The position numbers and the translations under genes were made by a program. Below the pieces are notes generated by a model. The model was not told the origin of the DNA, did no database searches, and was given only the letters and a program-made list of their open reading frames with translations. This document shows, one piece after another, positions 26,571 to 49,488 of a stretch of DNA of 64,000 bases; the stretch's first letter is position 1; every line of letters begins with the position of its first letter. Source of the DNA: Escherichia phage A4; the sequence record ON286972. One strand, written 5' to 3'.

Positions 26571-27092
26571 ATGAACTATAATCAATTATCACAAGAAGAT
26601 ACTGATATTTGGCTAAAGAACGTAAACAATACGTTGGAACTTGTGCGACAATGTATTTCGGAAGCTGACCGTGTATCAGACGAAGCTAAAGAAAAAACAT
26701 ACAAACACTTTCACCGTAATATCTTCATGAAAATTTATGCACTTACTATGTATAATATGTACAAACCATCTGATATTTTTATTGGGTTGTATAGTGGGGC
26801 GATGTTCACATTAGGTGGGATTTTTTCAGATACTGGTCGTACATTAGAACAAAACGAAAAAGATGTTATCGTGGCAGTTGATAAGATTATGAATAAGGAA
26901 GTGGATTTCATTCTGGAAATCGTTCGTTGCTGGAATGTTTATAGCTCAAAACCATTTGACATTACACAGAAAGATATAGTAGACTATATGCGTATTTTAC
27001 GTACACATCAGATCTGTAAAGAACTATTAACCAATTTAGGGACATATGATGAAACATACAACGTGGTTGAAGATAGCCAGTGTCGTTGCTGA
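26571..27092 (+). CDS. Hypothetical protein (173 aa)
   Basis: Track ORF. Confidence 0.5.
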   Translation: MNYNQLSQEDTDIWLKNVNNTLELVRQCISEADRVSDEAKEKTYKHFHRNIFMKIYALTMYNMYKPSDIFIGLYSGAMFTLGGIFSDTGRTLEQNEKDVIVAVDKIMNKEVDFILEIVRCWNVYSSKPFDITQKDIVDYMRILRTHQICKELLTNLGTYDETYNVVEDSQCRC

Positions 27093-27528
27093 GGAAAGTA
27101 AGTGTCTTTCCCAGAAAGTAGGTTGTGTTATTGTAAAGAATAACCGAGTATTGAGTACTGGATATAACGGTACACCATCAAAGCAACCTAACTGTTGTGA
27201 TGTTAATAAACATCTCGTAAACAATGGTCAGTTTCAGGATTGGATTGATGAAGATGCAAAACACTTACATCACGAGTGGAGCAACATTCATGAGATCCAT
27301 GCGGAAATGAATGCATTACTATATAGTTCACCACAAGAACGTCAGGGTGCAACACTTTACACCACACTCCAACCGTGCTATACTTGTTCTAAGTTAATCG
27401 CTGGTAGTGGTATTTCTCGTGTAATTTACGAAAAATCGTATCCTCGCACTCCACCAGAAGCTATTAAAGTACTGGAAGATGCTGGGATTATTGTAAATTG
27501 TATCTATGATAATGGACTCAATAAATGA
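27046..27528 (+). CDS. cd: dCMP deaminase
   Basis: Zinc-binding HAEMNAL and PCYTC motifs; close parallel to recalled T4 Cd (LQIA..VS.ESKC.S.KVG.VI.KN.R..STGYNG). Confidence 0.9.
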   Translation: MMKHTTWLKIASVVAEESKCLSQKVGCVIVKNNRVLSTGYNGTPSKQPNCCDVNKHLVNNGQFQDWIDEDAKHLHHEWSNIHEIHAEMNALLYSSPQERQGATLYTTLQPCYTCSKLIAGSGISRVIYEKSYPRTPPEAIKVLEDAGIIVNCIYDNGLNK

Positions 27529-30504: not shown

Positions 30505-30516
30505 TAAAATATAAAG

Positions 30517-31020: not shown

Positions 31021-31154
31021 AACATCTCCTTACCTTAAAAATGGGATTGTAAACTGCCTCCCAATATGATACCATAGTTCAAATGGTCAATTGGTAAATC
31101 AATGAACTTAACAAAAACACTTGATACTACAGTCATAATTGTTCAGTTTTGCAC

Positions 31155-31183
31155 TTGACATAATTGATCAATTATTGTACTAT
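31155..31183 (+). promoter_or_regulatory. Candidate sigma70-like promoter
   Basis: TTGACA, 17 nt spacer, TACTAT, about 35 nt upstream of 31219. Confidence 0.35.
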
Positions 31184-31218
31184 TATTTATGTTCCTTAAC
31201 TCAAATCCGAGGTAATCA

Positions 31219-31824
31219 ATGAAACGAATCTTGAAAGAGATTGTACAAACCGTTGTTTTAATCGCTGCATTAAACTTTCCGGCAGCGGCAGAAGTTTCAA
31301 AAAAATCATCAGTTTTTCTATTAAATGAACATGTTGTGTCAATTGATGGTGAACTAAATGATGAAACTGTACAAGAAGTGAAGAAGTTGTGGAAAGAAAC
31401 AAGATTTAAAATTTTAACAATTACATCACCTGGTGGAGATTTTGATGCAGGATTAGATTTGGGATTGTTTGTGGCTGCTAAAAAGTTAACTGTTTATGTC
31501 CCAAAGCAATGTAATTCGTCTTGTAGTCTGGTTTTTTTCTCTGCATCATCTGAACGTAGGGATATGAGTGATACCGCAGTGATGGGTTTACATAACATCT
31601 CACTAGTATCTACGAATGGTGCAGATCCAGATACGACATTCGTTTCAGTTAGACAGTTGATGGAGTTTACACATCAAGTCTCAACTAAAGTTGGGTATCT
31701 TTTTACACTGTACGCACATAACGGTATCCCCGCTGAAACACTCATTGATATCAGTACTAAACATGGTGAGGATATCGTTGTCTTACGAAGAACAGATCTA
31801 GTTAAATGGGGAATTATTCAATAA
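31219..31824 (+). CDS. Secreted ClpP/NfeD-like serine peptidase-fold protein
   Basis: N-terminal signal-like segment, then ILTITSPGGDFDAG resembling the ClpP-class SPGG motif. Confidence 0.45.
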   Translation: MKRILKEIVQTVVLIAALNFPAAAEVSKKSSVFLLNEHVVSIDGELNDETVQEVKKLWKETRFKILTITSPGGDFDAGLDLGLFVAAKKLTVYVPKQCNSSCSLVFFSASSERRDMSDTAVMGLHNISLVSTNGADPDTTFVSVRQLMEFTHQVSTKVGYLFTLYAHNGIPAETLIDISTKHGEDIVVLRRTDLVKWGIIQ

Positions 31825-31951
31825 AAGTTGTATTTTTTATGAAGCAATGATATAATCCTAATACTAATTCATGATTTTGGTTAAGGGTGGTGTACTGCCA
31901 CCCGATTTTAAGATATAATGGTTGCACATTAAACAACCAAGGAAACAAAAA

Positions 31952-32215
31952 ATGACAGAATTATCACATCTTCAAGGCTGGACAGAGTTCATCTTCTATG
32001 CTACTATAGTTACATATGGAATCATTGTTCTTTTATCAGTGATTATGGCAAATGATTTTAAGAGTGGTTTTCTTGAAGAAAATGGTGAGTTTTCTTCTAA
32101 AACTGAAAAGTACTTTTATTATTTCTTTAAAATTTCGTATACAATTTTACTCATAATTTTGGGTTTACTATTGTATTTCATGTACACAATCTTAGATGTA
32201 ATGCATCTTTTATAA
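31952..32215 (+). CDS. Small membrane protein
   Basis: Trimmed to ATG 31952 after AAGGAAA; two hydrophobic helices. Confidence 0.45.
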   Translation: MTELSHLQGWTEFIFYATIVTYGIIVLLSVIMANDFKSGFLEENGEFSSKTEKYFYYFFKISYTILLIILGLLLYFMYTILDVMHLL

Positions 32216-32226
32216 CGGAGATAACA

Positions 32227-32829
32227 ATGACTTGTATTATTGCTTACACTGATGGTAACACATCTTTTATCGCGGGTGACAAACTGGGTAGTAATGGTTT
32301 CACTAAAGCAATTCAAACTGAACCAAAAGTGTTTGAAAAAGAATTCATCAAAATCGATGAAAGTGGATTGAATCGCACCAAAGAAGTTATGGCAATGGGA
32401 TACACGTCGAGCTTCCGCATGGGACAATTGCTGACGTATAAACTTGATTTACCTGAACAGCAATCAAACCAAACATTCTCACAGTACTTAGTACTTGAGG
32501 TAATCCCACGTATTCGCACACTATTCAAAGAAGAATGGGGTGCTCGTGATACAACTCAAGATGTGGGTGGTGGTCAATTTATCATTCTTCATAATCATAC
32601 AATTTATGAAGTGCAAGAGGACTTTTCAGTACTCCAGCCTAAGACTCAAATTACGTCAGTAGGTAGTGGGACATATCATGCAATTGCAGCTATGCAAGCA
32701 TATATTGAAGTTCAAAAAGAAACAGGTGTTAAGATGGTTGATCGCACCGATTCTATCTTCAAAATTGTAAGTGATAATGTTACCAGCGTTAGTGCTGAGT
32801 ATGATTTACTAAGCTATCCTAAGCTGTAA
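32227..32829 (+). CDS. Ntn-hydrolase, HslV/proteasome-beta-like peptidase
   Basis: Thr2 after Met, IAGD and SVGSG..YA.AA motifs paralleling E. coli HslV. Confidence 0.5.
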   Translation: MTCIIAYTDGNTSFIAGDKLGSNGFTKAIQTEPKVFEKEFIKIDESGLNRTKEVMAMGYTSSFRMGQLLTYKLDLPEQQSNQTFSQYLVLEVIPRIRTLFKEEWGARDTTQDVGGGQFIILHNHTIYEVQEDFSVLQPKTQITSVGSGTYHAIAAMQAYIEVQKETGVKMVDRTDSIFKIVSDNVTSVSAEYDLLSYPKL

Positions 32830-32889
32830 TACAAAAAAGGGGATTCTTATAATCCCCTATATTAATTTAATAAGGAGAGTATTATAACT

Positions 32890-33102
32890 ATGATAACTAT
32901 CAATTACTTTTCACTATGCTTTGTTTATTTTGTTGTTGTATTTCTAGCAGTTGTAGCGTACAATAATATTAAATGTATATATAAAATTATCAAAAACAAA
33001 GAGAAATTCAATGGATGGATGATATATCACATTGTCATCTCGGTTGTGTGTATCTTATTTGTATACGATTTGAGTTCATTAGGTACAGTAGGTAAGCTAT
33101 GA
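32890..33102 (+). CDS. Small membrane protein (70 aa)
   Basis: Two hydrophobic helices; AAGGAG RBS. Confidence 0.45.
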   Translation: MITINYFSLCFVYFVVVFLAVVAYNNIKCIYKIIKNKEKFNGWMIYHIVISVVCILFVYDLSSLGTVGKL

Positions 33103-33851
33103 TTTCTGACTCTTTTATAAAAAATAAAGGTAATAAACGTGTATTGGTTATTTCCGGTGCAGGTCTATCCGTTGAAAGTGGGATGGAACCGTTTCGCATG
33201 GACGATGGCCTATGGGATCAATTTCAAATAAATGATGTATGTAACATTGCACGTCTTAGTACTAAGTATCATTTAGTACACACTTTCTATAATACATTAC
33301 GTGTTAAAATGAAAGATTGTGTTCCTAATGATATGCATTATTATATCAAATCTCTAGAAGATACATACGGTGATAACTTTTTACATATGACTTCGAATAT
33401 GGATGATCTCTATACTCGTATTGGTGGTAATGAATTAAAGTTACATGGTAATTTAAAAGAAGTTATTGAGAATTTTACAATTGGTGGTGACGATTATAGT
33501 ATTGTGGATTGTGGTTATGAACCGTACATTCCGAAAGAAGGTGTCTTTGCGAAACCAAACGTAGTGTTCATTGGTGAATATTATCGTTATGTTGATGGTG
33601 AAAAACTCCCAATATACGATGAGCGTAATTTAATATTGCAATCCTTAACAGAAGATGATACAGTTGTAGTCATTGGTAGCAGTGACACAGTACTGAAATG
33701 GTCACATCTGGTTGCTTGTTTACCATGCTTTAGTGTTAATATCAACATCAGAAAAAATGATAACGATTTCATGTTCAATGAAAAAATTATAAAACCAGCT
33801 ACAAAAGCGATTCCAGTACTGGAAACTATCATTAAGGATAGAATGAAATGA
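33099..33851 (+). CDS. Sir2-family (sirtuin-like) protein
   Basis: VLVISGAGLSVESG..PFR..DGLW and HMTSNMDDL...HG motifs match the sirtuin NAD-binding core; no Cys4 zinc module seen. Confidence 0.7.
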   Translation: MISDSFIKNKGNKRVLVISGAGLSVESGMEPFRMDDGLWDQFQINDVCNIARLSTKYHLVHTFYNTLRVKMKDCVPNDMHYYIKSLEDTYGDNFLHMTSNMDDLYTRIGGNELKLHGNLKEVIENFTIGGDDYSIVDCGYEPYIPKEGVFAKPNVVFIGEYYRYVDGEKLPIYDERNLILQSLTEDDTVVVIGSSDTVLKWSHLVACLPCFSVNINIRKNDNDFMFNEKIIKPATKAIPVLETIIKDRMK

Positions 33852-34396
33852 TTCGAGAAGTACCTCTAGGTGAGTATGGTAAACGAGCAAACTTTGTATT
33901 CTGTTACTTCTTTGCTCGAAATTGTAACCCATATAAAGGTTATGAATTAAATGATATCCCTGTTGTGAATCTGGTATTACTCCAGCTTCGTTGGGATGGT
34001 TTACTGGGTGGTTGTGGTGGAACAGTCGAAGATACCGATGCCACCTTAGAAGATGCACTATTCCGTGAAATTCAGGAAGAGATGGATTATAATATTTTCA
34101 TCGAACAACTGAAACCATTGAAAACTTACGAACTATATCCTGGAGCACATACCCATAGCTATAGTTATGAAGTTACTTACGAAGAATTGAATGCGATTCG
34201 CGACGGATACAGTACTGCTAAACATGCAAGTGCAGAAGTGGCTGGTGTTAATTTATGTCACATTTCTCGTTATTCAAAGGGACAAAACCGAGAAGCAGGA
34301 TATAATAATCTTATGACACAAAACTTCATAGGAACTGCTAAAATGGAATTAGAACATCTTGTTCAATCCGAGAATTTACTGATTAGTTACTTATAA
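33848..34396 (+). CDS. Nudix-like hydrolase
   Basis: GGTVEDTDATLEDALFREIQEEM approximates the Nudix box GX5EX7REUXEE. Confidence 0.45.
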   Translation: MIREVPLGEYGKRANFVFCYFFARNCNPYKGYELNDIPVVNLVLLQLRWDGLLGGCGGTVEDTDATLEDALFREIQEEMDYNIFIEQLKPLKTYELYPGAHTHSYSYEVTYEELNAIRDGYSTAKHASAEVAGVNLCHISRYSKGQNREAGYNNLMTQNFIGTAKMELEHLVQSENLLISYL

Positions 34397-34407
34397 GGTG
34401 AATTATA

Positions 34408-34740
34408 ATGTCTTACTCAATGTTTCTGGATGATATTCGTGATCCTGAAAAGTATTATCCAAATCAAAACATGGTTTTATGTCGTGATTATGAAAGTGCA
34501 TGTGCTTATGTAAATGAACATGGTTTACCACAATTTATTAGCTTCGATCATGACTTAGGTGATGTTGGGGAGGATGAAAAAACAGGGTATTCATTTGCAA
34601 AATTTCTAATTGATTATATGGTCGAAAACAATATCAGTACTGAATTCGATTATATCATCCATAGCAGTAATCCTGTAGGGAAGGTCAACATTGACACATA
34701 CTTACAGAATGGTTTTAGATTTTTGAGAGGGGACAATTGA
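34408..34740 (+). CDS. Hypothetical protein (110 aa)
   Basis: Track ORF. Confidence 0.5.
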   Translation: MSYSMFLDDIRDPEKYYPNQNMVLCRDYESACAYVNEHGLPQFISFDHDLGDVGEDEKTGYSFAKFLIDYMVENNISTEFDYIIHSSNPVGKVNIDTYLQNGFRFLRGDN

Positions 34741-35036
34741 CAAAACATCATATACAAAGCTTTATAATCACAAGTGTTATATTTCTTGTTGTGTTTTGGT
34801 TCTTCTATCATCAAGATCAAACCAAGCACAGAAATATATACTACCGTACTGCTGTTGTTACTGACATAGGGCAGTGTGAAGAAAATACATGTTCATTTAC
34901 TTATAAGACTGAAGATGGGTCTATTAAGTATGGAGCATCAAGTAAACCAGTTTCAGTTGGGCAAATTGTTTACAATGAATGCTGGACAGAAAAGGCTCGC
35001 GGTCACCGCTGCTACGTTGACTATGAGCCACAATAA
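34737..35036 (+). CDS. Small membrane-anchored protein
   Basis: TTG start overlapping the upstream stop; N-terminal hydrophobic helix. Confidence 0.4.
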   Translation: MTKHHIQSFIITSVIFLVVFWFFYHQDQTKHRNIYYRTAVVTDIGQCEENTCSFTYKTEDGSIKYGASSKPVSVGQIVYNECWTEKARGHRCYVDYEPQ

Positions 35037-35100
35037 GAAGTGTCTGAGTCTATAATCTACCGTAGAGCACAAGGATGTGCTCATAACTCAAGGATGTTTT

Positions 35101-36540
35101 ATGAAAAAATACACAATTGACACAAACGTACTACTATCCGATCCAAATGCAACTGTAGCATTTGATGGGGCAGCAGTGATTCTACCATTCACTGTTCTTG
35201 AAGAACTTGATTCAATCAAGAGCCGTAATGTTGACGTATCACGTGATGCACGTTTCGCAATCCGTAACATCGATGCAATTCTGAAAGATGCTACTCATGA
35301 AGAAATCAGCAGTACTGGTGTTAATATTGCCAATATCCACAAAAATATGGATGCATCCAGTAAGCTATTCGTTATGACGAATGAAGAAGCTGAAGCACTT
35401 ATTCGTATGGGCGGCAGTGAAGATAAAGTAGAAACTCTACTTAAAAGTACTGTACCAGATGACAAAATCATTCTAGTGGCTTTGGCATCACAATCAGTAC
35501 TGGTAACTCGCGACATTAACATGCGTATCAAAGCAATGAGCTACGGTGTTGAGGTACAAGATTACCGTCATGACGTTGCAATCGAAGATAGTGAGTTGAT
35601 TCATATTGGTCAGCACCACCTTGATATTGATTTCTGGAAAACATTCAGTGAAGTTAATAATGCTGAAATTAAATCCCAACAAGAAGGTCGCCGTCTATAT
35701 CACTATATTCCAACCGCATTGATTCAAGATGTTCTACCAGATAATCTATGTATTGGTGATTATCTATATGATAATGCTGATGTACTATTCGTATACGAAG
35801 GTCAATCTGCTATCGAAGAAGAAGACGGTTCACTAACACCTGAAGATATTTTGGTATTCCAGGATATTGGTCAAAGTATCGCTCTTCGTGCTAAAGTTTG
35901 GGATATTAAAGCAAAGAATATTCAACAGGCACTAGCAATTAACAGTATTCTTGACCCTGATGTACATTTGACAGTACTACTCGGTTCAGCAGGTACTGGT
36001 AAAACATTGATTACTGTTGCTACTTCACTCGAATTAGTGCTGGAAAAACGTAAATACGATCGTATAATCTTCTCCAAAACACAAGATTCTCAATTTGAAG
36101 AAATTGGTTTCTTGCCTGGTTCTGAAGCTGAGAAGGTCATCCCATTCTGTGGGGCTGCAATTGATGCACTAGAGTATCTACACAAAGACGATGCTAACCC
36201 ACAAGGTAGTATTGAAGAGATTCTCAAACGTAACGTAATGCAGTTTAAAGCATTGAACTTTATTCGTGGTCGTTCTTTTACTAATACAATTCTAATTGTT
36301 GATGAATTCCAGAACATCACCCCTGCACAGGCAAAAACTATTCTTACCCGTGCAGGTCAAAACTGTAAGGTTATCATTATGGGTAACTTAGCACAGATTG
36401 ATAGTAAGTTTATTAGTCCAGTTAATAGTGGTTTGACATATGTAACTGAAAAATTCAAAGATTGGGAAGGGTGTCGTATCATTGAATTGGAAGGTGTTGT
36501 ACGTTCTGCACTTGCAGAGTTTGCAGAAGAAAATATGTAA
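35101..36540 (+). CDS. phoH: PhoH-like ATPase with N-terminal PIN domain
   Basis: Trimmed to ATG 35101; PIN-like N-terminus (IDTNVLL), Walker A GSAGTGKT, Walker B-like ILIVDEFQN. Confidence 0.8.
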   Translation: MKKYTIDTNVLLSDPNATVAFDGAAVILPFTVLEELDSIKSRNVDVSRDARFAIRNIDAILKDATHEEISSTGVNIANIHKNMDASSKLFVMTNEEAEALIRMGGSEDKVETLLKSTVPDDKIILVALASQSVLVTRDINMRIKAMSYGVEVQDYRHDVAIEDSELIHIGQHHLDIDFWKTFSEVNNAEIKSQQEGRRLYHYIPTALIQDVLPDNLCIGDYLYDNADVLFVYEGQSAIEEEDGSLTPEDILVFQDIGQSIALRAKVWDIKAKNIQQALAINSILDPDVHLTVLLGSAGTGKTLITVATSLELVLEKRKYDRIIFSKTQDSQFEEIGFLPGSEAEKVIPFCGAAIDALEYLHKDDANPQGSIEEILKRNVMQFKALNFIRGRSFTNTILIVDEFQNITPAQAKTILTRAGQNCKVIIMGNLAQIDSKFISPVNSGLTYVTEKFKDWEGCRIIELEGVVRSALAEFAEENM

Positions 36541-36547
36541 TCTATTA

Positions 36548-36576
36548 TTGACATTAAATGTGTTCATTGCTATAAT
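36548..36576 (+). promoter_or_regulatory. Consensus sigma70 promoter
   Basis: TTGACA, 17 nt spacer, TATAAT, about 30 nt upstream of 36609. Confidence 0.65.
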
Positions 36577-36608
36577 GAACACACCATTATCGAAGAAGGA
36601 AGTAAATC

Positions 36609-36797
36609 ATGGCTAAACAACCTAAGAAAAAAGAACCAGAAGTTAAAGTTAAAAAAGTGAAAGTTATTCAATCCAAAGAACAACGCACTTATGAGCTACG
36701 TAAAGCTGAAACTTTAAGTGGGCTTCAGTCTCTACGTAAGCAAGGTGTACTAACACGTGCACAATATCGTGAACTGGTTGCACAAAAAGGTTTTTGA
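36609..36797 (+). CDS. Small lysine-rich protein (62 aa)
   Basis: Directly downstream of a consensus promoter; GAAGGAAG RBS. Confidence 0.55.
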   Translation: MAKQPKKKEPEVKVKKVKVIQSKEQRTYELRKAETLSGLQSLRKQGVLTRAQYRELVAQKGF

Positions 36798-36902
36798 TTT
36801 AACGCGTTTTTTTGGAGTTCTTAATAAATACTTTCATAAGAATAATAATACTTTTTATGAATTTAAAAAGAACTCCATGTGTTATTTCAGTAAGTTTTTC
36901 AT

Positions 36903-36928
36903 CCCTGTCAATTGGCAGGGATTTTTTA
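36903..36928 (+). terminator. Rho-independent terminator
   Basis: Hairpin ccctg-tcaattgg-caggg followed by ATTTTTTATT. Confidence 0.55.
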
Positions 36929-36941
36929 TTGGTGGTAAACT

Positions 36942-37688
36942 ATGGATCTTGAAAAACAAACCGAAGCAATCATCACCGAACTAATCAAAATTGGTTATAA
37001 ATGCCCATTTATCTATGGTTCGTGGAATACTTTTTGTTTGTATAAGTATGATGACAAATTACCAAATGATATTGATGTTATTAATATAGTACCAGAAGAG
37101 TTTGAAGAAGGTGAGTTCTCTGTAAAATTAGATTGTATTGATATACCTGTCAATATTGAATGTATGACTCTCAATCATCTTCGTGTCGAATTAATGCGTG
37201 GTGATGTTAAATACTATACCATCGGTTTTGGTACTATTGTACCGAAATGTGCAAATCATCTTTTGATGTACCTTGGTCATATCGGTTCGGTTATGATGAC
37301 ACGCCGTAACAGTGAGATTCGTAAAATTTGCAGTACTGCATCAGATAAAGCCTTTAATAAAGGAAAAAAGAAGTTGACAGTACTGGAAGATTACGATAAG
37401 ATGTTAGGACTAAAGAACATCTGGCATAGCATTCACTTCATCTATATCATTACGCATTATTACAATCTGTACAGATCTAACACTGAACATGAAATGAATA
37501 TTGCGTCGATGAAACAAGAGTTTGATGTGCTTGAAATGCTGAACATTCGCGACAACATCTATAAGATATATGATGAAACATATGGTGATTATCATGTAAA
37601 AGCACAAGCTGTTATTGATTACGCGAAACCGATTCGTAACAAACTGATGACTGAATTTAGAAAATTATACCCCAAGGAGGATGTATGA
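36942..37688 (+). CDS. Hypothetical protein (248 aa), possible minimal nucleotidyltransferase fold
   Basis: GS followed ~17 aa later by DID; weak evidence only. Confidence 0.45.
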   Translation: MDLEKQTEAIITELIKIGYKCPFIYGSWNTFCLYKYDDKLPNDIDVINIVPEEFEEGEFSVKLDCIDIPVNIECMTLNHLRVELMRGDVKYYTIGFGTIVPKCANHLLMYLGHIGSVMMTRRNSEIRKICSTASDKAFNKGKKKLTVLEDYDKMLGLKNIWHSIHFIYIITHYYNLYRSNTEHEMNIASMKQEFDVLEMLNIRDNIYKIYDETYGDYHVKAQAVIDYAKPIRNKLMTEFRKLYPKEDV

Positions 37689-37751
37689 AAGATACTTTCA
37701 GAGGTCGCATGACTTTCCATTAAGGAACTTTAACTTAATGGAGAAAATAAT

Positions 37752-38309
37752 ATGTTCTTTGACCAAACATTTACGTTGTACCATGATTCTGGAAAAGTAG
37801 AGATTGTTGATAATCTTCTACAATATATTGCTGACCACGAAGGGGTTGAACGATTTCACAGCAAAATGAAATTTGATTTATCCGAGTTCAACAAGAAGAA
37901 TCGTGAATCATTCTGGAAAAATCGTTTCTATTATGAAATGTATCCTGAAAAGTTTGTCAGTTATTATCTCTGTACTGAAAAAGGTTTACTTGTATCGCCT
38001 GATTTACTTATGGGTGAATACATGGTTCTCTATAATGAGTACTGGGAACATAAACGTAAGGCCCGTGACACCGAATGGCGACACAAACGCTCTTACATGT
38101 ACAAGCATAACCATTTTCGCTACAAACGTCCTAAGACCCAACAAGAGCGTCGTATGGCGTGTGCAGTACTGAAGGATGATGGTGAACCTGATATTCGTGG
38201 AAAACGCAAGATGCGTTCACTACCGACATATTGGGACGATTTTAGAACAAGACACAGTACTGGCTGGAAATACAGTACTAAACGTAAACATCAATACAAA
38301 GGGAGCTAA
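37752..38309 (+). CDS. Hypothetical basic protein (185 aa)
   Basis: GGAG RBS; K/R/H-rich C-terminal half. Confidence 0.5.
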   Translation: MFFDQTFTLYHDSGKVEIVDNLLQYIADHEGVERFHSKMKFDLSEFNKKNRESFWKNRFYYEMYPEKFVSYYLCTEKGLLVSPDLLMGEYMVLYNEYWEHKRKARDTEWRHKRSYMYKHNHFRYKRPKTQQERRMACAVLKDDGEPDIRGKRKMRSLPTYWDDFRTRHSTGWKYSTKRKHQYKGS

Positions 38310-38324
38310 TGCTCCCTATTTTTA
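38301..38324 (+). terminator. Rho-independent terminator overlapping the stop codon
   Basis: Hairpin gggagcTAAtgctccc followed by TATTTTTA. Confidence 0.55.
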
Positions 38325-38336
38325 TATAGGTATATT

Positions 38337-38666
38337 ATGAACAAAATTGACGTTGAAGTTGTTATTGGCTATATTGAAATTGAACAGTGTGGTATTGATA
38401 CATTTATTGACACTCTTAATAAGTACCGTGCAGAGTACAAGGGGCACATTAGTCTTTCACCAGACGGTGGTTACGGCGGGTTCGATGGATACAATGTAAT
38501 TTGGACACGAGAAGAAACGGATGAAGAATACAATATCCGTTTGCAGTTAGAATCACAACGTCGCGAAGAAATTGAACGTCAAGAAATGAAACATTTAATG
38601 AACAAGAAATCATTAAGTGCTGAAGAGAAATCTAAACTTCTAAAATATATCAAGGATTACATGTAA
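38337..38666 (+). CDS. Hypothetical protein (109 aa)
   Basis: Track ORF. Confidence 0.5.
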   Translation: MNKIDVEVVIGYIEIEQCGIDTFIDTLNKYRAEYKGHISLSPDGGYGGFDGYNVIWTREETDEEYNIRLQLESQRREEIERQEMKHLMNKKSLSAEEKSKLLKYIKDYM

Positions 38667-39316
38667 TGAAAAATGTAACTCAAGAAAAGATTCTGTATCA
38701 CGCTAAACATAACGGTTCTTTCAATATTATTAGTCGAGAATACGTTGGTCATATGGCTAAGTTGATTGATAATTTATTGGAATTTGATTTCCTGAAATGG
38801 GAAACTAATAATCTTTGGTATGAATACGCTGGACAGCAATGGGAAAGTGATTATGATAATGCAACACATTCATATACTATCACCAAAGCAGGTGAAGTTC
38901 GTTTAGCCATTATGCGTTGTGCATATGCTTACAAAAATCACAAAGGTGAAGAAAAACATACTCGCAGAAATGAAGAGCTATTGCTTCTCATGGAATCAGC
39001 GAAAGTTACAATGTATGATTTGTTCAACCATCCGCGTTGGTATGAAAATCTAACCAAAGCAGAGTACAAAGCGTTGCGTTACATTGATGAACAGACCAAA
39101 ACGCCAATTTTAGTAGATGATGTAAGTGACGGTGAACTAAGCCTCAAATGTGTATTTGACAATTCCAGTACTGAGAGCATTGCTGACATTTCAGTACAAA
39201 TGGCACTTAAAGCTATGGAACTATTCAAGACGCAATACCAAGGTACAAATGCCGATGAAATTGAACGTGAGTTCATTACACGCGTACAGATTGCATTAGC
39301 TAAGACCAAAACTTAA
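38666..39316 (+). CDS. Hypothetical protein (216 aa)
   Basis: Track ORF. Confidence 0.5.
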   Translation: MKNVTQEKILYHAKHNGSFNIISREYVGHMAKLIDNLLEFDFLKWETNNLWYEYAGQQWESDYDNATHSYTITKAGEVRLAIMRCAYAYKNHKGEEKHTRRNEELLLLMESAKVTMYDLFNHPRWYENLTKAEYKALRYIDEQTKTPILVDDVSDGELSLKCVFDNSSTESIADISVQMALKAMELFKTQYQGTNADEIEREFITRVQIALAKTKT

Positions 39317-39334
39317 AAACATTGGAAAATAATC

Positions 39335-39520
39335 ATGAAAAGACTTGCATATGTATTAGTATTAATGTTAATATCATCTTGTTCACTAATGGACTTTAAA
39401 TACAGTACACAATACTATTCAGTGTTTGAAGAAGCACCAGATAACTGTTTACTAGAAAGTAATCAGATGTATGTCATTAATGGTGAAACAAAATTACAAT
39501 ACATTTGCAAAGAGGATTAA
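39335..39520 (+). CDS. Small lipoprotein
   Basis: Signal peptide with lipobox-like LISSC. Confidence 0.5.
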   Translation: MKRLAYVLVLMLISSCSLMDFKYSTQYYSVFEEAPDNCLLESNQMYVINGETKLQYICKED

Positions 39521-39523
39521 TTC

Positions 39524-39757
39524 ATGAAAAAGATTATCATTTCTTGTTTAGTTGCTGGGGCAACCTTACTCGTAGGCTGTGCACCTAAAGTTAACGAGAT
39601 GGATGCAGAAATGATCCGTAAGGACTTAACTAAACTGAATCATAATGGCACACTCTATGCCTGTCATGAGATGCGTCACGGACAGGATCTAAATCTTATG
39701 TGTCGCAAAATTGTTAACCGCAAACGCTTAACAACAGTTCCAAAGGATGCTCAATGA
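39524..39757 (+). CDS. Small lipoprotein
   Basis: Signal peptide with lipobox-like LLVGC. Confidence 0.5.
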   Translation: MKKIIISCLVAGATLLVGCAPKVNEMDAEMIRKDLTKLNHNGTLYACHEMRHGQDLNLMCRKIVNRKRLTTVPKDAQ

Positions 39758-39779
39758 AAGACGTAATGGGATATAAACT

Positions 39780-40139
39780 ATGAGTGATTATGTTGCATTC
39801 CTACATCGTTTTGGTAAAGCTGAAGAAAAGCACATCATTCGTCTACCAGCTTATGGTGAGAAAGACTGGTACAAAAGTACTATCAGCGTAGGTGCATTCC
39901 GTGACCGTGAAGCTGAATTCTTTCTCGGTAAGCAACATGAACGAGCAGTACTTTGCTCCCTTTGGCGTTTAGACGAATGGGATGAAGAGAATGCAAGAAC
40001 TGCGGTATCAATGCTTAAAATTGTTGGCATTGCAAACTATCAGCACCCATATGATCTATTACCTACGTTTACCCATGCTTCATTGTTTGACTTTTATAAA
40101 GCAATCGGGTATGATTATAAAAAGAAACGTTATATCTGA
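39780..40139 (+). CDS. Hypothetical protein (119 aa)
   Basis: Track ORF. Confidence 0.5.
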   Translation: MSDYVAFLHRFGKAEEKHIIRLPAYGEKDWYKSTISVGAFRDREAEFFLGKQHERAVLCSLWRLDEWDEENARTAVSMLKIVGIANYQHPYDLLPTFTHASLFDFYKAIGYDYKKKRYI

Positions 40140-40149
40140 GGATCAATCC

Positions 40150-40953
40150 ATGTCGAATCCAATCTGTAAGCATTGTTCAAAAACTAAATTCTACCATGAA
40201 CCACATACATTGAAATGTCCTAAACCTTCTCGTTCTCTTCTCGTCACTTATGAAGATGTTAATGTATATGATGAAGTAGTTTCTGAACCAAACGTTTTAG
40301 TTATTCCAGAAATCAATCAAACCGTAAGTACATTACTAGATTGGAAAGAACAGATTACCAATGTAGATGATTTTGTTATTCCGTTACATGACAAACAATG
40401 GGTTTTTGATACGATTTATAAAAATGCCGATGTTGATTGTGAAGAAGAAGCAGATGACCTAAAATGTGCATTAAACAATTGTGATGGAACTGTCGTTTTA
40501 GGTAAACCGGATACTGCAAATGATGGAACTTATCTAATGTTTGGTATGAAAACCAATATCGGTGAACTTGAAGATGATTATTGCCTTCTTGATAATATTA
40601 CATTAATAGAATGGAGTAAGCTTTCTAATTTAGAATTGATTGAAATTGGCACTTTTGAAAGTCATATGGATATTGATGAAAGTAAGAATAAAGGTATTAA
40701 TGCCTTTATGTCTGAAGTTATTGGGCGTTCATTGTATAGTCCCGATTCCGTTGATATCAAAACGACTGCTGATTGTAAAGCATTCCTAAAGCAAGAATAT
40801 GATGTTGAAAAAGCAAAACGCATTAAAAAAGAAAAATGGGGTCAAATCGAATACCGCTTATTTGAATCAGATGAAGGTAGACATTACACCTTAGTATCGT
40901 ATAACGATAAACTAATTTCTCATTACGCTTTTGCATATAACGAAGACTACTAA
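40150..40953 (+). CDS. Hypothetical protein with N-terminal Cys/His cluster
   Basis: Track ORF 39982-40953 trimmed to ATG 40150; CKHCSKTKFYHEPHTLKC. Confidence 0.45.
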   Translation: MSNPICKHCSKTKFYHEPHTLKCPKPSRSLLVTYEDVNVYDEVVSEPNVLVIPEINQTVSTLLDWKEQITNVDDFVIPLHDKQWVFDTIYKNADVDCEEEADDLKCALNNCDGTVVLGKPDTANDGTYLMFGMKTNIGELEDDYCLLDNITLIEWSKLSNLELIEIGTFESHMDIDESKNKGINAFMSEVIGRSLYSPDSVDIKTTADCKAFLKQEYDVEKAKRIKKEKWGQIEYRLFESDEGRHYTLVSYNDKLISHYAFAYNEDY

Positions 40954-40959
40954 TAGTTC

Positions 40960-40986
40960 AGTACTGTCCATGTGGCAGTACTTTTT
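40960..40986 (+). terminator. Rho-independent terminator built from the CAGTACTG palindrome
   Basis: agtactg-tccatgtgg-cagtact followed by TTTTT. Confidence 0.5.
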
Positions 40987-40997
40987 ATGGAGACTAT

Positions 40998-41615
40998 ATG
41001 ACTACATCACAAAAGTACTGGTGGATTTTGGGACACCCTGAATTTATCAATAAAGACTACGTTGATGCTCGCATTGATGTTGAGCCACACGATGTATGTC
41101 CCATCACAAATCGAATTGAAGATTATCCGGCCCTGAATACAAAAACACAGTACTGGATCGAAATGCTAACTCCGTTTTTCGATGAAGACGAAGGGAAGTT
41201 CGTTCGTGGACATGAGTACGAGTTGGATTGTGGTGGTGATACATATGAAGAAGCAATTGATAATTTATACACCAAGATCCTAGAAAAGTACGGTGATTAC
41301 ACACAAGAAGAAGCGGAAGCTAAGTATGATGCTGTACATCAGCGTGTAGTGACGAAAAGTGCTTTTCCTTCATCAATGTTCCAACCAGAAGAACTTCGTA
41401 ACACATGGGAGAACTCAAAATTATCTGAAATTGAACGTGATTATATTCCAGGTGATATTGAAAACATTAAAGGTACAATAAAAGCCTTGAAAGAATTCCT
41501 CAAAACTTGTACAATAGAAGAACAAGAAGAGGCAAACAAACATTTACAATCCGAGGAATGTAAACTATGGGTGCTTGAGGAATCACTTAGAAAAGGCATA
41601 GACTACAACATATGA
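40998..41615 (+). CDS. Hypothetical acidic protein (205 aa)
   Basis: Track ORF. Confidence 0.5.
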   Translation: MTTSQKYWWILGHPEFINKDYVDARIDVEPHDVCPITNRIEDYPALNTKTQYWIEMLTPFFDEDEGKFVRGHEYELDCGGDTYEEAIDNLYTKILEKYGDYTQEEAEAKYDAVHQRVVTKSAFPSSMFQPEELRNTWENSKLSEIERDYIPGDIENIKGTIKALKEFLKTCTIEEQEEANKHLQSEECKLWVLEESLRKGIDYNI

Positions 41616-41980
41616 ACCCGAAATTGCTTAAACTGGTAGAAGAACTCCGTGAGATGCCGCCGATTGAACAAGTTGGCAATTACAAACGGTATAGAGTAAT
41701 TGCTCGTGCACTGGATAAGAAAGGTCGAGTACTGGCTACTCGTACCAACTCTTACACACAGACTCACCCTAAGCAGAAAGGCTTTGCAATTCGTGCGGGT
41801 CGCCCTCAAGGGGAATTTTTACACGCTGAAATTTCGTGTCTTCTTGCTGCTCGTGCTGAAGTACATACTCTTCTTATCGCTCGTGTAAGTAAAGATGGAA
41901 TTCCAGTTCCAGCAAAACCTTGTGAGATTTGTACATTAGCAATTCAGGAGTACGGGGTAAAAGAGATTATCCATACATGA
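41612..41980 (+). CDS. Small CDA-fold zinc deaminase-like protein
   Basis: HAE and PCEIC zinc-ligand motifs in a 122 aa protein, distinct from cd. Confidence 0.55.
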   Translation: MNPKLLKLVEELREMPPIEQVGNYKRYRVIARALDKKGRVLATRTNSYTQTHPKQKGFAIRAGRPQGEFLHAEISCLLAARAEVHTLLIARVSKDGIPVPAKPCEICTLAIQEYGVKEIIHT

Positions 41981-42198
41981 AAATTGAACGATATCAGCAC
42001 CATACTGTACTGTTTGGTGAATCAATAATGTACTATTATATTTTTGAGCCAAAACATTCGTTACAAATAACTATATACGAAAATGGTAAATTTAAAGATA
42101 CCAATTTCCCATTACATGAATTGGCATTATATTCCAGTACTGATCACTTTAAGCATTTAGTATTTGTATATTGTATTCCAAATGAAAACGAGGAATAA
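41977..42198 (+). CDS. Hypothetical protein
   Basis: Track ORF 41929-42198 trimmed to ATG 41977 (ATGA overlap). Confidence 0.4.
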   Translation: MKIERYQHHTVLFGESIMYYYIFEPKHSLQITIYENGKFKDTNFPLHELALYSSTDHFKHLVFVYCIPNENEE

Positions 42199-42200
42199 CT

Positions 42201-42611
42201 ATGTTAGAAGATGAGTTTCTAAAATTAAGTAGAAAGATATTTGATATACTAGGTGATGAAACAGATTTCAATCTAAGCGATAAAGATATCCCATTGGAAG
42301 ATGGTGGTTTCTTTTTCGCATTTGGATCTACGTATAATCTGGATATTTCAAAGCCTATCAGTGATGATAGTGATTATACTGCAACAACATATTTTGATTT
42401 CCAGCTTAATGGACACAAAGAGCGTTTACTAACGTACAGACGTAAAGGTAGTTTCAATAGAACCGAGATTACATTAATGGATTTTGAGAAACGCATCGAA
42501 CTCGCGAAGAAACATCCATTCATCAGTACTCATGCGTTTAATAGGCTAATCGATCTATTAGACAGTTATCCAGAGACAATACGAGGGTCATTACGTTTAA
42601 ATGCAGATTGA
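42201..42611 (+). CDS. Hypothetical protein (136 aa)
   Basis: Track ORF. Confidence 0.5.
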   Translation: MLEDEFLKLSRKIFDILGDETDFNLSDKDIPLEDGGFFFAFGSTYNLDISKPISDDSDYTATTYFDFQLNGHKERLLTYRRKGSFNRTEITLMDFEKRIELAKKHPFISTHAFNRLIDLLDSYPETIRGSLRLNAD

Positions 42612-42786
42612 AATTTTTAAAAAAGAATATGATGGTGAAAGTATCTGTGATATCCAACGTGATGTACATGAAGCGTTTAATTCCAGATTCAATCCATTAG
42701 TTGCTCAAATTCCACAAGATGAGTATGGATTCCAGGAAGGTACATTTACTGTAACTATTACATGGAGTCCAGATGAGACTAATTAA
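42601..42786 (+). CDS. Hypothetical protein (61 aa)
   Basis: Track ORF. Confidence 0.4.
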   Translation: MQIEIFKKEYDGESICDIQRDVHEAFNSRFNPLVAQIPQDEYGFQEGTFTVTITWSPDETN

Positions 42787-42865
42787 ACTATTCATTGGTT
42801 GCAGTGCAATTGCAATTTATATGTTATGCTAATCTGGTCAGTTGTTATTTTGTCTATTCTATAAA

Positions 42866-42890
42866 GCACCCAAGTGGTGCTTTTTGTGTT
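42866..42890 (+). terminator. Rho-independent terminator
   Basis: Hairpin gcacc-caagt-ggtgc followed by TTTTTGTGTTT. Confidence 0.55.
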
Positions 42891-43019
42891 TGTACAGTAC
42901 TTAATCAATTGCACTTTTCCTTGATTTAGGTCAAGAGAAAAAGGCCAATATGAGGCTATAATGCTCTTTGTTGAAGTTAAATAAATTCACCCAAACGAAT
43001 AACATACAAGGAATGTGAA

Positions 43020-44825
43020 ATGCAAATAGATAAATTATATACGGACGTAACTAACTTCCTCAACCAGAGTAACGCTGATTTAACAAACGAAAATGCAAAT
43101 AAAGACGCTAAATGTGTTAATACACATCGTGATTTATTGGCAGGTATTCTTTCTAAACATTATTCCCAAGATGTGATTCCTGATGAATTGATGAAGTGGC
43201 ATAATGAAGGTTACGGTCATATTCATGATTTAGACTATTACATTAGCCCATTAACAAACTGTTGTTTAGTTAATTATCCTGATATGCTTGCTAATGGCTT
43301 CATGATTGGTTGTGCCAAGATTGAAGAACCAAAAAGCTTTGGGGTAGCTTGTACAGTACTAACACAGATTGTTCAGGCTGTTGCAAGCTCACAGTACGGT
43401 GGTCAGTCGTTGGCTCACATTGACACTGGCCTTGCACCATATGTACAAAAGTCATGGAATAAACTTCTAGAAAAACAAAAGAAATACAATCTTAGTACTG
43501 AATTCATTGAAGATGAGTTGCGTAAGGAAGTTTATGACGGTTGTCAAACAATTCTATATCAAACAAACTCAATGATCAGTACTAATGGTCAGGCTGCGTT
43601 CATTTCTTTAAGTTTAGGATTAGGTACATCTAAATTTGAAAAACTAATCACTGAACAATATTTGAAAGTACATGAAAATGGACTAGGTAAAGATAAGATT
43701 ACTCCAGTATTCCCTAAAGTAATATTCTTTCTTCAGGATGGAATTAATATGAACAGTACTGATTGTAATTATGACTTAAAACAATTAGCTATGCGTTGTG
43801 CAGCTAAACGCATCTATCCTGATTTTGTATCAGTACCTTTGAATCAAAAAGTTACTGGAAGCACAACTATTCCTGTTACTCCGATGGGATGCAGAAGTTT
43901 CTTAGGGAAATGGGAAAATACACAAGGAGAAGAAAAATACAATGGTAGATTCAACCTTGGCGTTGTGTCTATCAACTTACCACTAATTGCTCTTGAGAGT
44001 GAGTCTGATGGTGATTTCTTTGATAAGATTGACGAGCACATGAATATTGCTTACAGAGCACAGATGAACCGTGTAGAACGTTTAAAAGGTACAAAGGCAA
44101 AACAAAACCCTATACTTTTCGCTGAAGGTGCGATTGCACGTCTTGATCCTGAAGACACTATTGACCATTTATTTTATAATGGTTATGCTAGTATCAGTAT
44201 TGGTTATGTTGGGTTATCTGAGTGTTCAGAGATCCTCACTGGTTCAATTAGTAAAGAGTTCTGTATGAGTATTTTGAACTACATGAAAGCAAAATGTGAT
44301 GAATTCAAAAAAGAGAGTAACATTGCATTTAGTCTTTACGGTACACCAGCAGAATCACTATGTTATAAATTTGCACGTTGTATTGAGGCAAAACATCCTT
44401 CAGTACTGAAACGTGACTTTATCACTAACTCATTCCATCAACCAGTATGGGTTGAAAGTACACCTTTTGCTAAATGGGATTATGAGGAAAACTTTGCTTA
44501 TCTAAGCAATGGTGGTAATATTAGCTATGTCGAAACACCAAATCTAGCTAATAATATACAAGCACTAGAAACATTAATAAATTTTGCTTATACTAAAATT
44601 CCATATTTTGGTATTAATCAGAAGGTCGATAAGTGTTTTGAATGTGATTTTGAGGGTGAATTTAGTGTAGATAAAAATGGTTTCCATTGTCCGGTATGTG
44701 ACAACCGCAATGAACGCACAATGTCGGTTATTCGCAGAGTATCAGGATATCTTAGTGCACCAAATAGTCGCCCGTTCAATAAAGGTAAACAAGCTGAAGT
44801 TATTCAACGTATACAACACATGTAA
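43020..44825 (+). CDS. nrdD: Anaerobic ribonucleoside-triphosphate reductase
   Basis: 601 aa; C-terminal Cys cluster CPVCDNRNERT and glycyl-radical motif RRVSGYL; uninterrupted. Confidence 0.9.
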   Translation: MQIDKLYTDVTNFLNQSNADLTNENANKDAKCVNTHRDLLAGILSKHYSQDVIPDELMKWHNEGYGHIHDLDYYISPLTNCCLVNYPDMLANGFMIGCAKIEEPKSFGVACTVLTQIVQAVASSQYGGQSLAHIDTGLAPYVQKSWNKLLEKQKKYNLSTEFIEDELRKEVYDGCQTILYQTNSMISTNGQAAFISLSLGLGTSKFEKLITEQYLKVHENGLGKDKITPVFPKVIFFLQDGINMNSTDCNYDLKQLAMRCAAKRIYPDFVSVPLNQKVTGSTTIPVTPMGCRSFLGKWENTQGEEKYNGRFNLGVVSINLPLIALESESDGDFFDKIDEHMNIAYRAQMNRVERLKGTKAKQNPILFAEGAIARLDPEDTIDHLFYNGYASISIGYVGLSECSEILTGSISKEFCMSILNYMKAKCDEFKKESNIAFSLYGTPAESLCYKFARCIEAKHPSVLKRDFITNSFHQPVWVESTPFAKWDYEENFAYLSNGGNISYVETPNLANNIQALETLINFAYTKIPYFGINQKVDKCFECDFEGEFSVDKNGFHCPVCDNRNERTMSVIRRVSGYLSAPNSRPFNKGKQAEVIQRIQHM

Positions 44826-44834
44826 GGAGATATT

Positions 44835-45197
44835 ATGTCAATTCAAGGTAAACAAGTCATGTCTGGTGAGCACCGTGGAACTATCATGCTAATAGAAAAT
44901 GATATTGCACGTATTATTGTATCAAAGACCTTTTCTGAAGATGATGAAGTACTTTTGAGTACTTTTGATGGTGAGGTACTGCGTGATGTGGAAATTCAAC
45001 ACGCACCGAATATTGAAGGTGGGCAGCACTTGAATGTAAATGTTCTATCTAAAGAACAACTCATTGATGCACAAAATAATCCAGAAAAGTATCCGCAACT
45101 TACAATTCGTGTTAGTGGTTATGCAGTTCGTTTCAATTCACTAACAAAAGAACAACAAGATGATGTAATCAATCGTACTTTTACTAAAGGTCTATGA
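44835..45197 (+). CDS. grcA: Autonomous glycyl-radical cofactor (GrcA/YfiD-like)
   Basis: [11 protein letters not shown] and [35 protein letters not shown] are near-identical to recalled E. coli GrcA/PFL C-terminus. Confidence 0.85.
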
Positions 45198-48897: not shown

Positions 48898-49488
48898 ATG
48901 GCTTATAAATTTAGATCTGATGTGGAAGCGTATGCTTCCGTTAAATCACAAGGAAAAAATACTGGGACCACGATAACTGATCGTTCTGGTAATGTGTATC
49001 AAGCTGATGCTAATGGGAATGTTGATGTACCACTCATGAGTACAGATGATGTGAATTACATTACCAGTTCCTTTCCGTTATCACAATTTGGTTCACTTTA
49101 CAGTACTGAACCATTGGGTATTTCTGCTGCTGGTTTCAATTTAACTTTCAGTAAAGAATTACCATTGTTCATGGCGGGAGCGGTTTATACCCTCCCTGCT
49201 AAAACAATAACGGACCCAGGAGTTACTGGAACTAATATTGAAACACATTATGTATATGTTATATTAGATGTTGGGGTAGCTGACTACCTCATTTCTAAAA
49301 CTCAACGCCCTGAAAGTAGTGTTAATATGTACATAGGACAACTGACAGTTTTCCCAGATGGCATTACAGGGGTCAGTATAAATAAAGTGTCAAGATTTGA
49401 CGACTTCAGAGTAAGTGCTACAAAAATTGGTTCAGCTATCCCTATCAGTTCTGGTACACCAGATGTGAATAGTGGGACAGAATGGTAA
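48898..49488 (+). CDS. Short protein carrying the C-terminal module of the large late paralogs
   Basis: 196 aa; C-terminus aligns with the last ~100 aa of both flanking large proteins and ends in W. Confidence 0.55.
   Translation: MAYKFRSDVEAYASVKSQGKNTGTTITDRSGNVYQADANGNVDVPLMSTDDVNYITSSFPLSQFGSLYSTEPLGISAAGFNLTFSKELPLFMAGAVYTLPAKTITDPGVTGTNIETHYVYVILDVGVADYLISKTQRPESSVNMYIGQLTVFPDGITGVSINKVSRFDDFRVSATKIGSAIPISSGTPDVNSGTEW

Follow-up and report, generated by a model that had tools for sequence, protein, structure and literature searches.

A large phage that encodes a canonical deoxycytidylate (dCMP) deaminase together with a second, minimal deaminase-like gene raises the question of what this second gene is and on what its product acts. 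Such is the case in Escherichia phage A4 (sequence record ON286972), of which we analysed a stretch of 64,000 nucleotides, given as one strand, 5′ to 3′, and called the window below. A sequence-only reading of the window had proposed that, besides the canonical gene cd (27046..27528, + strand), a 122-amino-acid (aa) protein carries the HAE...PCEIC zinc-ligand pair of cytidine and deoxycytidylate deaminases. The open reading frame (ORF) is indeed present at 41612..41980 (+, stop codon included), it starts with ATG, and it encodes HAE at codons 71-73 (41822..41830, +) and PCEIC at codons 103-107 (41918..41932, +). Its orthologue is gene 490 of phage 121Q. We found that the encoded protein, here called the small deaminase, represents a distinct, virus-restricted clade of the deaminase superfamily that falls into no named clade, having the topology seen in the superfamily's C-terminal-hairpin division and a sequence nearest to that of the dCMP-deaminase group.

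The small deaminase is recognised by Pfam model PF00383 with 30 bits, against a gathering cut-off of 25 (expectation value, E=5e-7), and by PHROG 174 ('dCMP deaminase') at 5.8e-13, and it gave no match to the NCBIfam TadA model. The zinc ligands H71, C104 and C107 and the catalytic E73 are all present, and the predicted fold agrees with their roles; the absence of the third ligand or of the active-site Glu had been named beforehand as the finding that would speak against a deaminase. Compared with the 121Q orthologue, DNA identity is 79% and protein identity 94%, and the ratio of nonsynonymous to synonymous substitution rates (dN/dS) is 0.043, a value obtained with synonymous sites near saturation. 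Judged from these substitutions, the gene is functional and under strong purifying constraint.

As a positive control, cd of the window was examined in the same way. Its PF00383 score is 78 bits, it matches PHROG 174 at 1.7e-60, and it has every published synapomorphy of the dCMP deaminases (C20, NGTP, a CC...H zinc insert, HAEMNA, TLYTT and VIYEKSY, matching Table 1 of PMC3239186), which confirms its identification as the canonical enzyme. No similarity between the small deaminase and Cd was detected by BLASTP, and the possibility that the former is a recent paralogue of the latter was rejected on this ground. Hence, with its catalytic residues intact and no detectable similarity to Cd, the small protein is a second, minimal deaminase of the cytidine deaminase (CDA) fold, as had been suggested. 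The cd ORF overlaps the preceding 173-aa ORF (26571-27092) by 47 nt, and its listed start, MMKHTTW..., may be right.

An AlphaFold2 model of the small deaminase, built on a 22-sequence alignment, had a predicted local distance difference test score (pLDDT) of 91.6 and a predicted template modelling score (pTM) of 0.83. In the model, a helix (residues 3-14) is followed by two strands (28-34 and 40-45), an insert helix (53-61), a second core helix (72-80), a strand (86-92), a third core helix (105-114) and a last strand (118-121). HAE opens the helix at 72-80 and PCxxC the helix at 105-114, as in the deaminase fold, and the three-layer alpha/beta/alpha core of the superfamily, with strands 1-4 and helices 1-3, is predicted along with both of its motifs, HxE and PCxxC. 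The 'short N-terminal extension' described in the sequence-only reading does exist as a stretch of residues, but for the most part it is helix 1 of the fold itself (residues 3-14) and not an added element. At the other end, the chain stops at T122, directly after strand 4 (EIIHT, codons 118-122, 41963..41977, +), leaving a predicted four-stranded core with neither strand 5 nor helix 4.

The family to which the small deaminase belongs is large. A profile of 22 relatives, run against 1.84 billion cluster representatives, matched 3,844 clusters at E<=1e-3, of which 844 reach E<=1e-10, and the 150 best representatives, on which the residue counts given below are based, are all 96-166 aa long. The tails of these proteins past PCxxC are bimodal: 62/150 end no more than 2 aa from T122, and 79/150 carry at least 8 extra residues. 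Helix 1 is missing too in 29/150. To our knowledge, the smallest natural enzymes of the CDA fold are found in this clade, with members down to 96-100 aa, some of which have neither helix 1 nor strand 5. In one of the extended relatives, P0051 (143 aa, model pLDDT 88.1), strands are predicted at 125-130 and 133-138, separated by a two-residue turn, which gives an antiparallel beta4-beta5 hairpin without helix 4. In addition, a Glu lies at tail positions 6-12 in 50 of the 79 extended tails, roughly where strand 5 would end. Since P0051 has the hairpin and most extended tails have this Glu, the ancestor of the family may have had a CDA-type hairpin with a terminal Glu.

The catalytic positions are practically invariant in the family, E73, C104 and C107 being present in 150/150 representatives, H71 and P103 in 149/150 and A72 in 143/150. 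Conservation is also high in the insert that separates strand 2 from helix 2, where the family motif N-S-Y-x-K-T-H-P-x-Q is found: N46 is kept in 148/150, Y48 in 116/150, K50 in 128/150 (Q in the window protein), T/S51 in 149/150, H52 in 136/150, P53 in 135/150 and Q55 in 132/150. This motif is represented in the window by NSYTQTHPKQ (codons 46-55, 41747..41776, +), which runs into the insert helix of the model, and the insert from N46 to H71 is 24 aa long in 120/150. Further downstream, an Arg at the end of strand 3 (codon 91, 41882..41884, +) is kept in 147/150 and G96 in 130/150, the R91-to-P103 loop measures 11 aa in 141/150, and the chain end of the window protein corresponds to Y/H/F121 (138/150) and T/S122 (136/150). 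Basic residues are conserved at K50, R91 and K/R102, and R91 is a candidate ligand for an anionic (phosphate) group.

Structure and sequence searches pointed to different relatives. With the window model, Foldseek against the PDB returned deaminases only, with template modelling (TM) scores of 0.49-0.56, among them the M. tuberculosis cytidine deaminase 4wif, the blasticidin-S deaminases 1wn5/2z3h, human dCMP deaminase and PBCV-1 bi-DCD, and against BFVD it returned unnamed viral proteins (TM 0.73-0.83). With the P0051 model, the homotetrameric cytidine deaminases, namely those of mouse, B. pseudomallei, plant, yeast and B. subtilis, were the best matches (TM 0.57-0.71), next to dCMP deaminases (0.44-0.61) and TadA variants (0.46-0.53). 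The profile search of the PDB placed dCMP deaminases first (2hvv at 2e-5, 4p9c of cyanophage S-TIM5 at 6e-5 and 1vq2 of T4 at 3e-4) and found no cytidine deaminase at E<1; the profile was needed here, as the single sequence yielded noise only. Among the Pfam models, PF00383 was matched by all members of a 75-sequence family alignment (75/75), the MafB19-deam model (PF14437) by 41/75 and Bd3614-deam by 12/75, and no other deaminase model, and hence no YwqJ model, was matched at E<0.01 by any of the 75. The MafB19 model is not discriminating, since the canonical Cd of the window matches it better (2.8e-15), and the small deaminase itself reaches only 13 bits on PF14437, below the gathering cut-off of 27.

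The deaminase superfamily has been split into two divisions, with synapomorphies listed for each clade (Iyer et al. 2011, PMC3239186). The C-terminal-hairpin division holds the CDD/CDA, blasticidin-S deaminase (BSD), DYW, MafB19, YwqJ and SCP1.201 clades, and the helix-4 division holds dCMP deaminase/ComE, TadA, RibD, GuaD and AID/APOBEC (PMC3239186). The dCMP deaminase/ComEB clade (T4 Cd, S. mutans 2hvv, S-TIM5 4p9c, human DCTD) resembles the small deaminase in that it provides the best PDB profile matches, shares PHROG 174 and has lent its name to several phage records. However, the features that define this clade are largely missing. The second zinc motif of dCMP deaminases lies in a bihelical insert, whereas the insert of the window protein is a single helix; it contains no Cys, and the same lack of Cys is seen in 116/150 representatives. 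Instead of NxxP, the window protein has N46-S-Y-T, and Pro is not among the six commonest residues at N+3 in the 150 representatives; instead of HxE-x-NA it has HAE-I-S-C, and Asn is not among the six commonest residues at E+2. The TxxxT of strand 3 is replaced by T86-L-L-I-A90, both positions being variable in the family. An aromatic residue after strand 4 is shared with the dCMP deaminases (Tyr in 98/150, His in the window), but the helix 4 that goes with it is missing, as is the parallel strand 5, in place of which the longer relative has its antiparallel beta4-beta5 hairpin. The spacing from the zinc-ligand His to the first Cys also differs, with 33 residues in the small deaminase and 29 in Cd of the window.

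The CDD/CDA and blasticidin-S deaminases are the best structural matches, they are of similar size (about 120-135 aa) and have a long loop from strand 3 to PCxxC, and their hairpin topology is the one predicted for the longer relatives of the small deaminase. The C[H]AE signature of helix 2 is present as HAE, which is the minority His variant, the usual zinc ligand at this position being Cys. The PCxxCR signature, on the other hand, is not that of the family, in which the Arg occurs in 18/150 and is a Thr in the window (PCEIC-T), and the hairpin with a Glu ending strand 5 cannot be formed by the window protein, which has no strand 5. The ribose motif of B. subtilis CDA is N-x-E, and the small deaminase has N-S-Y there.

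TadA/Tad2 enzymes share HAE...PCxxC and the Asn in strand 2 with the small deaminase, and weak TadA profile matches were obtained (E 0.01-0.05). The EPCxMC motif and the two tRNA-binding helices after strand 5 that characterise TadA are nevertheless missing, since the window protein reads AKPCEIC and has nothing past strand 4. The MafB19-like toxins also have an HxE, an Asn ending strand 2 and a Gly before strand 4, in addition to the 41/75 matches to PF14437, and among the toxin clades a His-bearing insert and a truncation after strand 4 are found as well. Yet these toxin deaminases form the C-terminal domain of a secreted toxin and have an immunity gene next to them, and the small deaminase is a stand-alone protein that has none; their Gx[CH]xE motif is not found in the family, which has Y/F at that position, and the small deaminase occurs only in phage genomes and metagenomic contigs and was not found on bacterial chromosomes. 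No match at E<=0.01 was found to the PADLOC models of anti-phage defence deaminases. Held against the features by which dCMP deaminases, CDD/CDA and TadA are defined, the protein fails in each case, and the sequence-only reading was right to leave its substrate open.

We then looked at the distribution of the family. A narrow motif, scanned against one genome each from 185,579 bacterial and archaeal species, found no relative. The family-wide motif NSYxKTHPxQ, in the same 185,579 genomes, found ten loci, all on contigs of metagenome-assembled genomes (MAGs) from taxa as scattered as Methanoregula, Peptococcaceae, Paludibacter and Paceibacterota; both of these scans used exact peptide patterns, which divergent cellular homologues could escape. 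Nine of the ten contigs are shorter than 9 kb and one is 58.5 kb long, and they are most simply explained as phage contigs binned into MAGs. No match was obtained in 5,426 complete E. coli genomes or in 72,556 plasmids, and 33 viral loci were found in IMG/VR. The family proteins labelled 'E. coli' in the protein database sit on contigs of ~350 kb, the same size as these phage genomes. A cellular origin or a prophage copy was therefore rejected, with nothing in the E. coli genomes or plasmids and only the ten MAG contigs from the exact-pattern scans. As far as these sequence scans reach, the family is found only in phage genomes and metagenomic contigs.

The window comes from a divergent Rak2/121Q/PBECO4-like jumbo myovirus of enterobacteria, with ~80% DNA identity to Asteriusvirus-type phages. 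Its small deaminase has orthologues with 92-97% protein identity, and only ~79% DNA identity, in jumbo phages of E. coli and Salmonella. Protein identity is 72% with RaK2 and ~55% with GAP32, CBB, Serratia phage BF and a Yersinia phage, and distant homologues (28-47%) occur in phiKZ-like Pseudomonas phages, in Aeromonas phages of 115-139 kb and in the Synechococcus myoviruses ACG-2014f and S-SCSM1. In total, 195/50,697 phage records matched. These records name the protein differently, as 'hypothetical protein', 'dCMP deaminase' (121Q gene 490), 'deaminase', 'cytidine/deoxycytidylate deaminase' or 'deoxycytidylate deaminase', and some members are called 'tRNA(Arg) A34 adenosine deaminase TadA' (JGI). 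The current names 'hypothetical protein', 'dCMP deaminase' and 'TadA' are not supported by the defining features of those clades.

A second deaminase-like gene in Rak2-like phages is already on record, as annotation only. In the Rak2-like phage CBB, two CMP/dCMP deaminases feeding thymidylate synthase were described from annotation (PMC5259590), the RaK2 paper lists one deaminase only (PMC3622015), and deaminases are not mentioned in a survey of jumbo phages (PMC7824862). The finding is not surprising in kind, as relatives are already annotated and phages have long been known to encode deaminases of the nucleotide pool. The new element is that a large and uncharacterised clade, restricted to viruses, has been delimited, which lacks the hallmarks of its namesake families and is cut to a four-stranded core.

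The company in which the small deaminase is found varies between lineages. In the window, it occurs with the canonical cd. In the phiKZ-like phage Pa_AttikonH10 (PQ741806.1), a family member with 33% identity (49005-49364) lies among hypothetical genes of the early region, and the phage also encodes a Dcd-type dCTP deaminase (75656-76225), thymidylate synthase, thymidylate kinase, dihydrofolate reductase (DHFR) and ribonucleotide reductase (RNR); the first 100 kb of this 278-kb genome were covered, and a further CDA-fold gene is possible in the remainder. A dCTP deaminase has been reported in phiKZ-related Ralstonia phages (PMC5468394). In Aeromonas phage 4L372D (MK813939.1, 138,690 bp, examined whole), the small deaminase is an HSE variant and the sole CDA-fold match in a six-frame scan with the family hidden Markov model (HMM) and Cd of the window, the same HMM having recovered both deaminases in the window as a control; the annotation of this phage includes thymidylate synthase, dUTPase and two RNR genes.

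Two further observations were made in 4L372D. Gene 073 (31492-32535, -; 347 aa, annotated GAP32-like) adjoins the small deaminase and has a 'GG...DVDMYF' motif that recalls a nucleotidyltransferase. A two-gene module with 4L372D_073 was considered and rejected, as no homologue lies near the deaminase in the Rak2-like loci and there is no significant match anywhere in the window. A block of small genes occurs three times in this genome, marked by 'Sano_07-like' at 5723-5887 (+), 14178-14342 (-) and 138006-138170 (-), one copy being inverted relative to another, and an unannotated 3-kb gap is present at 8.4-11.6 kb. Such an arrangement resembles long repeats, either terminal or inverted, or an artefact of assembly.

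The G+C content of the cultured carriers that we examined is low: 34.9% in the window, 31% at the RaK2 locus, 34-37% in phiKZ-like phages, 33.5-35% in the Aeromonas phages (35% in 4L372D) and 39% at the S-SCSM1 locus. The hosts of these phages are much more G+C-rich than the phages themselves.

We also compared the surroundings of the gene, by clustering all ORFs of 47 fetched loci together with those of the window. Except for the deaminase itself, no protein family is common to different lineages in this set. Upstream of the small deaminase lies a 205-aa gene (40998..41615, +; PHROG 16370, function unknown) whose stop overlaps the deaminase ATG (ATGA, 41612-41615), and downstream a 73-aa ORF (41977..42198, +) whose ATG overlaps the deaminase stop (ATGA, 41977-41980). 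Synteny with the 205-aa gene is confined to Rak2-like phages among the fetched loci, and homologues of the 73-aa ORF were found there only in 121Q, one region of which accounts for two of the loci. The neighbour genes gave no Pfam or PADLOC match and, where they matched PHROGs, these are of unknown function; the 73-aa ORF matched neither Pfam nor PHROG. Since no neighbour family is common across lineages and the neighbours have no assigned function, the deaminase gene stands alone, with no conserved immunity, inhibitor or complementing partner gene across lineages. We rejected the idea of a split gene or partner, in which the 73-aa ORF or the 205-aa gene would supply the missing strand 5 or an inhibitor, because these neighbours are lineage-limited and lack any Pfam, PHROG-function or PADLOC match, and because 62/150 members of the family end at the same Thr.

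Further away, nrdD, which encodes an anaerobic (class III) ribonucleotide reductase of 601 aa (43020-44825), lies 1 kb downstream of the small deaminase, and a 159-aa ORF at 45501-45980 matches the position of the nrdG-like activase that is annotated after nrdD in 121Q. The small deaminase is thus near, and not inside, a nucleotide-metabolism block. The gene content around it differs between close relatives: in 121Q the small downstream ORF is separated from a 136-aa ORF by two added genes, 492 ('HrgC') and 493 (121Q locus 6366-7598), and the window has no counterparts of them at 41980-42611. A 323-aa ORF at 39982-40953 (+; PHROG 36508, function unknown) has a homologue in the RaK2 locus and none in the corresponding 121Q locus, and is a variable gene in a region whose synteny is conserved in other respects; it overlaps the preceding ORF (39780-40139) over its first ~50 codons, so that its true start is probably an internal ATG. 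In related phages, the sequences matching region 25000-45000 of the window carry annotated genes for PhoH-like, Sir2-like (NAD-dependent deacylase) and WGR-domain proteins, for nudix hydrolase and for Clp/head-maturation protease, of which Sir2, nudix and WGR may bear on conflicts with the host over NAD or ADP-ribose. No tRNA or transfer-messenger RNA (tmRNA) gene was found by ARAGORN in the whole 64-kb window.

What, then, does the small deaminase act on? The reading that we favour, and to which we give about an even chance, is that it is an active zinc-dependent hydrolytic deaminase whose substrate is most likely a pyrimidine nucleoside or nucleotide in free form, deaminated at the cytosine ring, and whose product feeds thymidylate synthase. 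The stand-alone catalytic core would consist of helix 1, strands 1 and 2, the capping insert helix, helix 2 with HAE, strand 3, helix 3 with PCxxC and strand 4. The candidate substrates would be dCMP/CMP or (deoxy)cytidine, and the product, deoxyuridine or dUMP, would be passed on to the phage thymidylate synthase; an AT-rich virulent phage (35% G+C) would in this manner convert the C pool of a more G+C-rich host to T. Allosteric control of the enzyme, with activation by dCTP and inhibition by dTTP, would be lacking, because the second zinc site and the C-terminal elements of the canonical dCMP deaminases are missing. The enzyme would probably be a homo-oligomer, its exposed active site being covered by adjacent subunits in the manner of the tetrameric cytidine deaminases. 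In dCMP deaminases, an insert at the same position as that of the family caps the pocket and limits access to a soluble base (PMC3239186), and since the insert of the small deaminase, conserved and of fixed length, occupies this capping position, a free small substrate is favoured. The conservation of K50, R91 and K/R102 fits an anionic substrate, and a role in the mainstream conversion of dC to dU fits 4L372D, where the small deaminase is the sole CDA-fold enzyme in a genome annotated with thymidylate synthase and dUTPase.

Several observations weigh against this reading. The small deaminase lacks most features of the dCMP-deaminase clade as well as the PCxxCR of CDD/CDA, and its coexistence with Cd in the window and with Dcd in a phiKZ-like phage means that a redundant dC-to-dU role is not obviously needed. 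The loss of strand 5 would leave a more open active site, and a comparable truncation is found in some toxin deaminases that target nucleic acids. Some metagenomic carriers have 53-56% G+C, and the link to AT-rich genomes is correlative only. Our literature search found no experimental or biochemical work on any member of the family. We also considered, as a less probable view, that the small deaminase is not a back-up dCMP deaminase and acts on a target that the canonical enzymes do not touch, such as a nucleic acid, a cytosine nucleotide that carries a modification, or an immune signal based on cytosine.

One form of this view, which we regard as possible and well short of likely, is that the substrate is a non-standard small molecule, for instance 5-methyl- or 5-hydroxymethyl-dCMP from methylated DNA, an immune signal such as cyclic CMP (cCMP), or a nucleoside antibiotic, which would make the small deaminase complementary to Cd or Dcd and not redundant with them. 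Their coexistence argues for such a different substrate, and it would suit a virus-restricted family that alone has the K-T-H-P-x-Q insert and R91, and that lacks the motifs by which CDA and dCMP deaminases recognise ribose and phosphate. Blasticidin-S deaminases are among the top structural matches, and the related phage phAPEC6 has been reported to have a C5-cytosine methyltransferase (PMC7247149). However, none of the neighbourhoods contains a conserved DNA-modification or anti-defence gene, the PADLOC models were not matched, and the situation in 4L372D fits the conversion of dC to dU. Less probable still, in our estimation, is a nucleic-acid deaminase that edits or mutates host DNA, phage or host tRNA, or transcripts through the active site opened by the loss of strand 5. 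The chain does end after strand 4, truncations after strand 3 or 4 are known from the YwqJ, BURPS668_1122 and XOO_2897 toxin clades (PMC3239186), 41/75 members match the MafB19 toxin-deaminase model, some carry the JGI name 'TadA', and the double-stranded DNA deaminases DddA and DddB are among the lower-ranking matches of the fold search. Yet the MafB19 model is matched better by Cd, the TadA model was not matched and its EPCxMC and C-terminal helices are missing, and the fold matches to DNA deaminases are weak (TM 0.25-0.51, E>0.05). Moreover, an unrestrained DNA deaminase would harm the phage genome too, and no conserved adjacent immunity or inhibitor gene exists, and the conserved capping insert argues for a small substrate.

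It is, finally, very improbable that the protein is a remnant whose catalysis no longer matters, or that its role is purely structural or regulatory and only a deaminase-like shape has been kept. Its very small size, the loss of strand 5 and the presence of a canonical enzyme in the same genome that could cover the chemistry would be compatible with this. The zinc ligands and the catalytic Glu are, however, kept in 149-150 of the 150 divergent representatives, dN/dS is far below one at 0.043, and 844 clusters are matched at E<=1e-10, a pattern that is expected of an active enzyme.

Whatever its substrate, the family shows how far the deaminase fold can shrink and still be kept by selection, since strand 4 is the last element in ~40% of the representatives and helix 1 is missing as well from ~20%. 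The function of the family could conveniently be tested in phiKZ, which is a well-developed model phage. If the target proved to be one that the canonical enzymes leave untouched, the clade would form a new functional class among phage deaminases and would offer base-editing tools a very compact scaffold, and with a substrate other than the one favoured here the family would add a new weapon or counter-defence to those of phages, built on a very small deaminase scaffold. If, as we favour, the small deaminase acts on free cytosine nucleosides or nucleotides, large virulent phages would have a widespread and previously unexamined means of reshaping the pyrimidine pool, namely a minimal C-to-U deaminase that escapes regulation and works next to, or in place of, the allosteric dCMP deaminase or Dcd, and this would explain in part how AT-rich phages grow in G+C-rich hosts.

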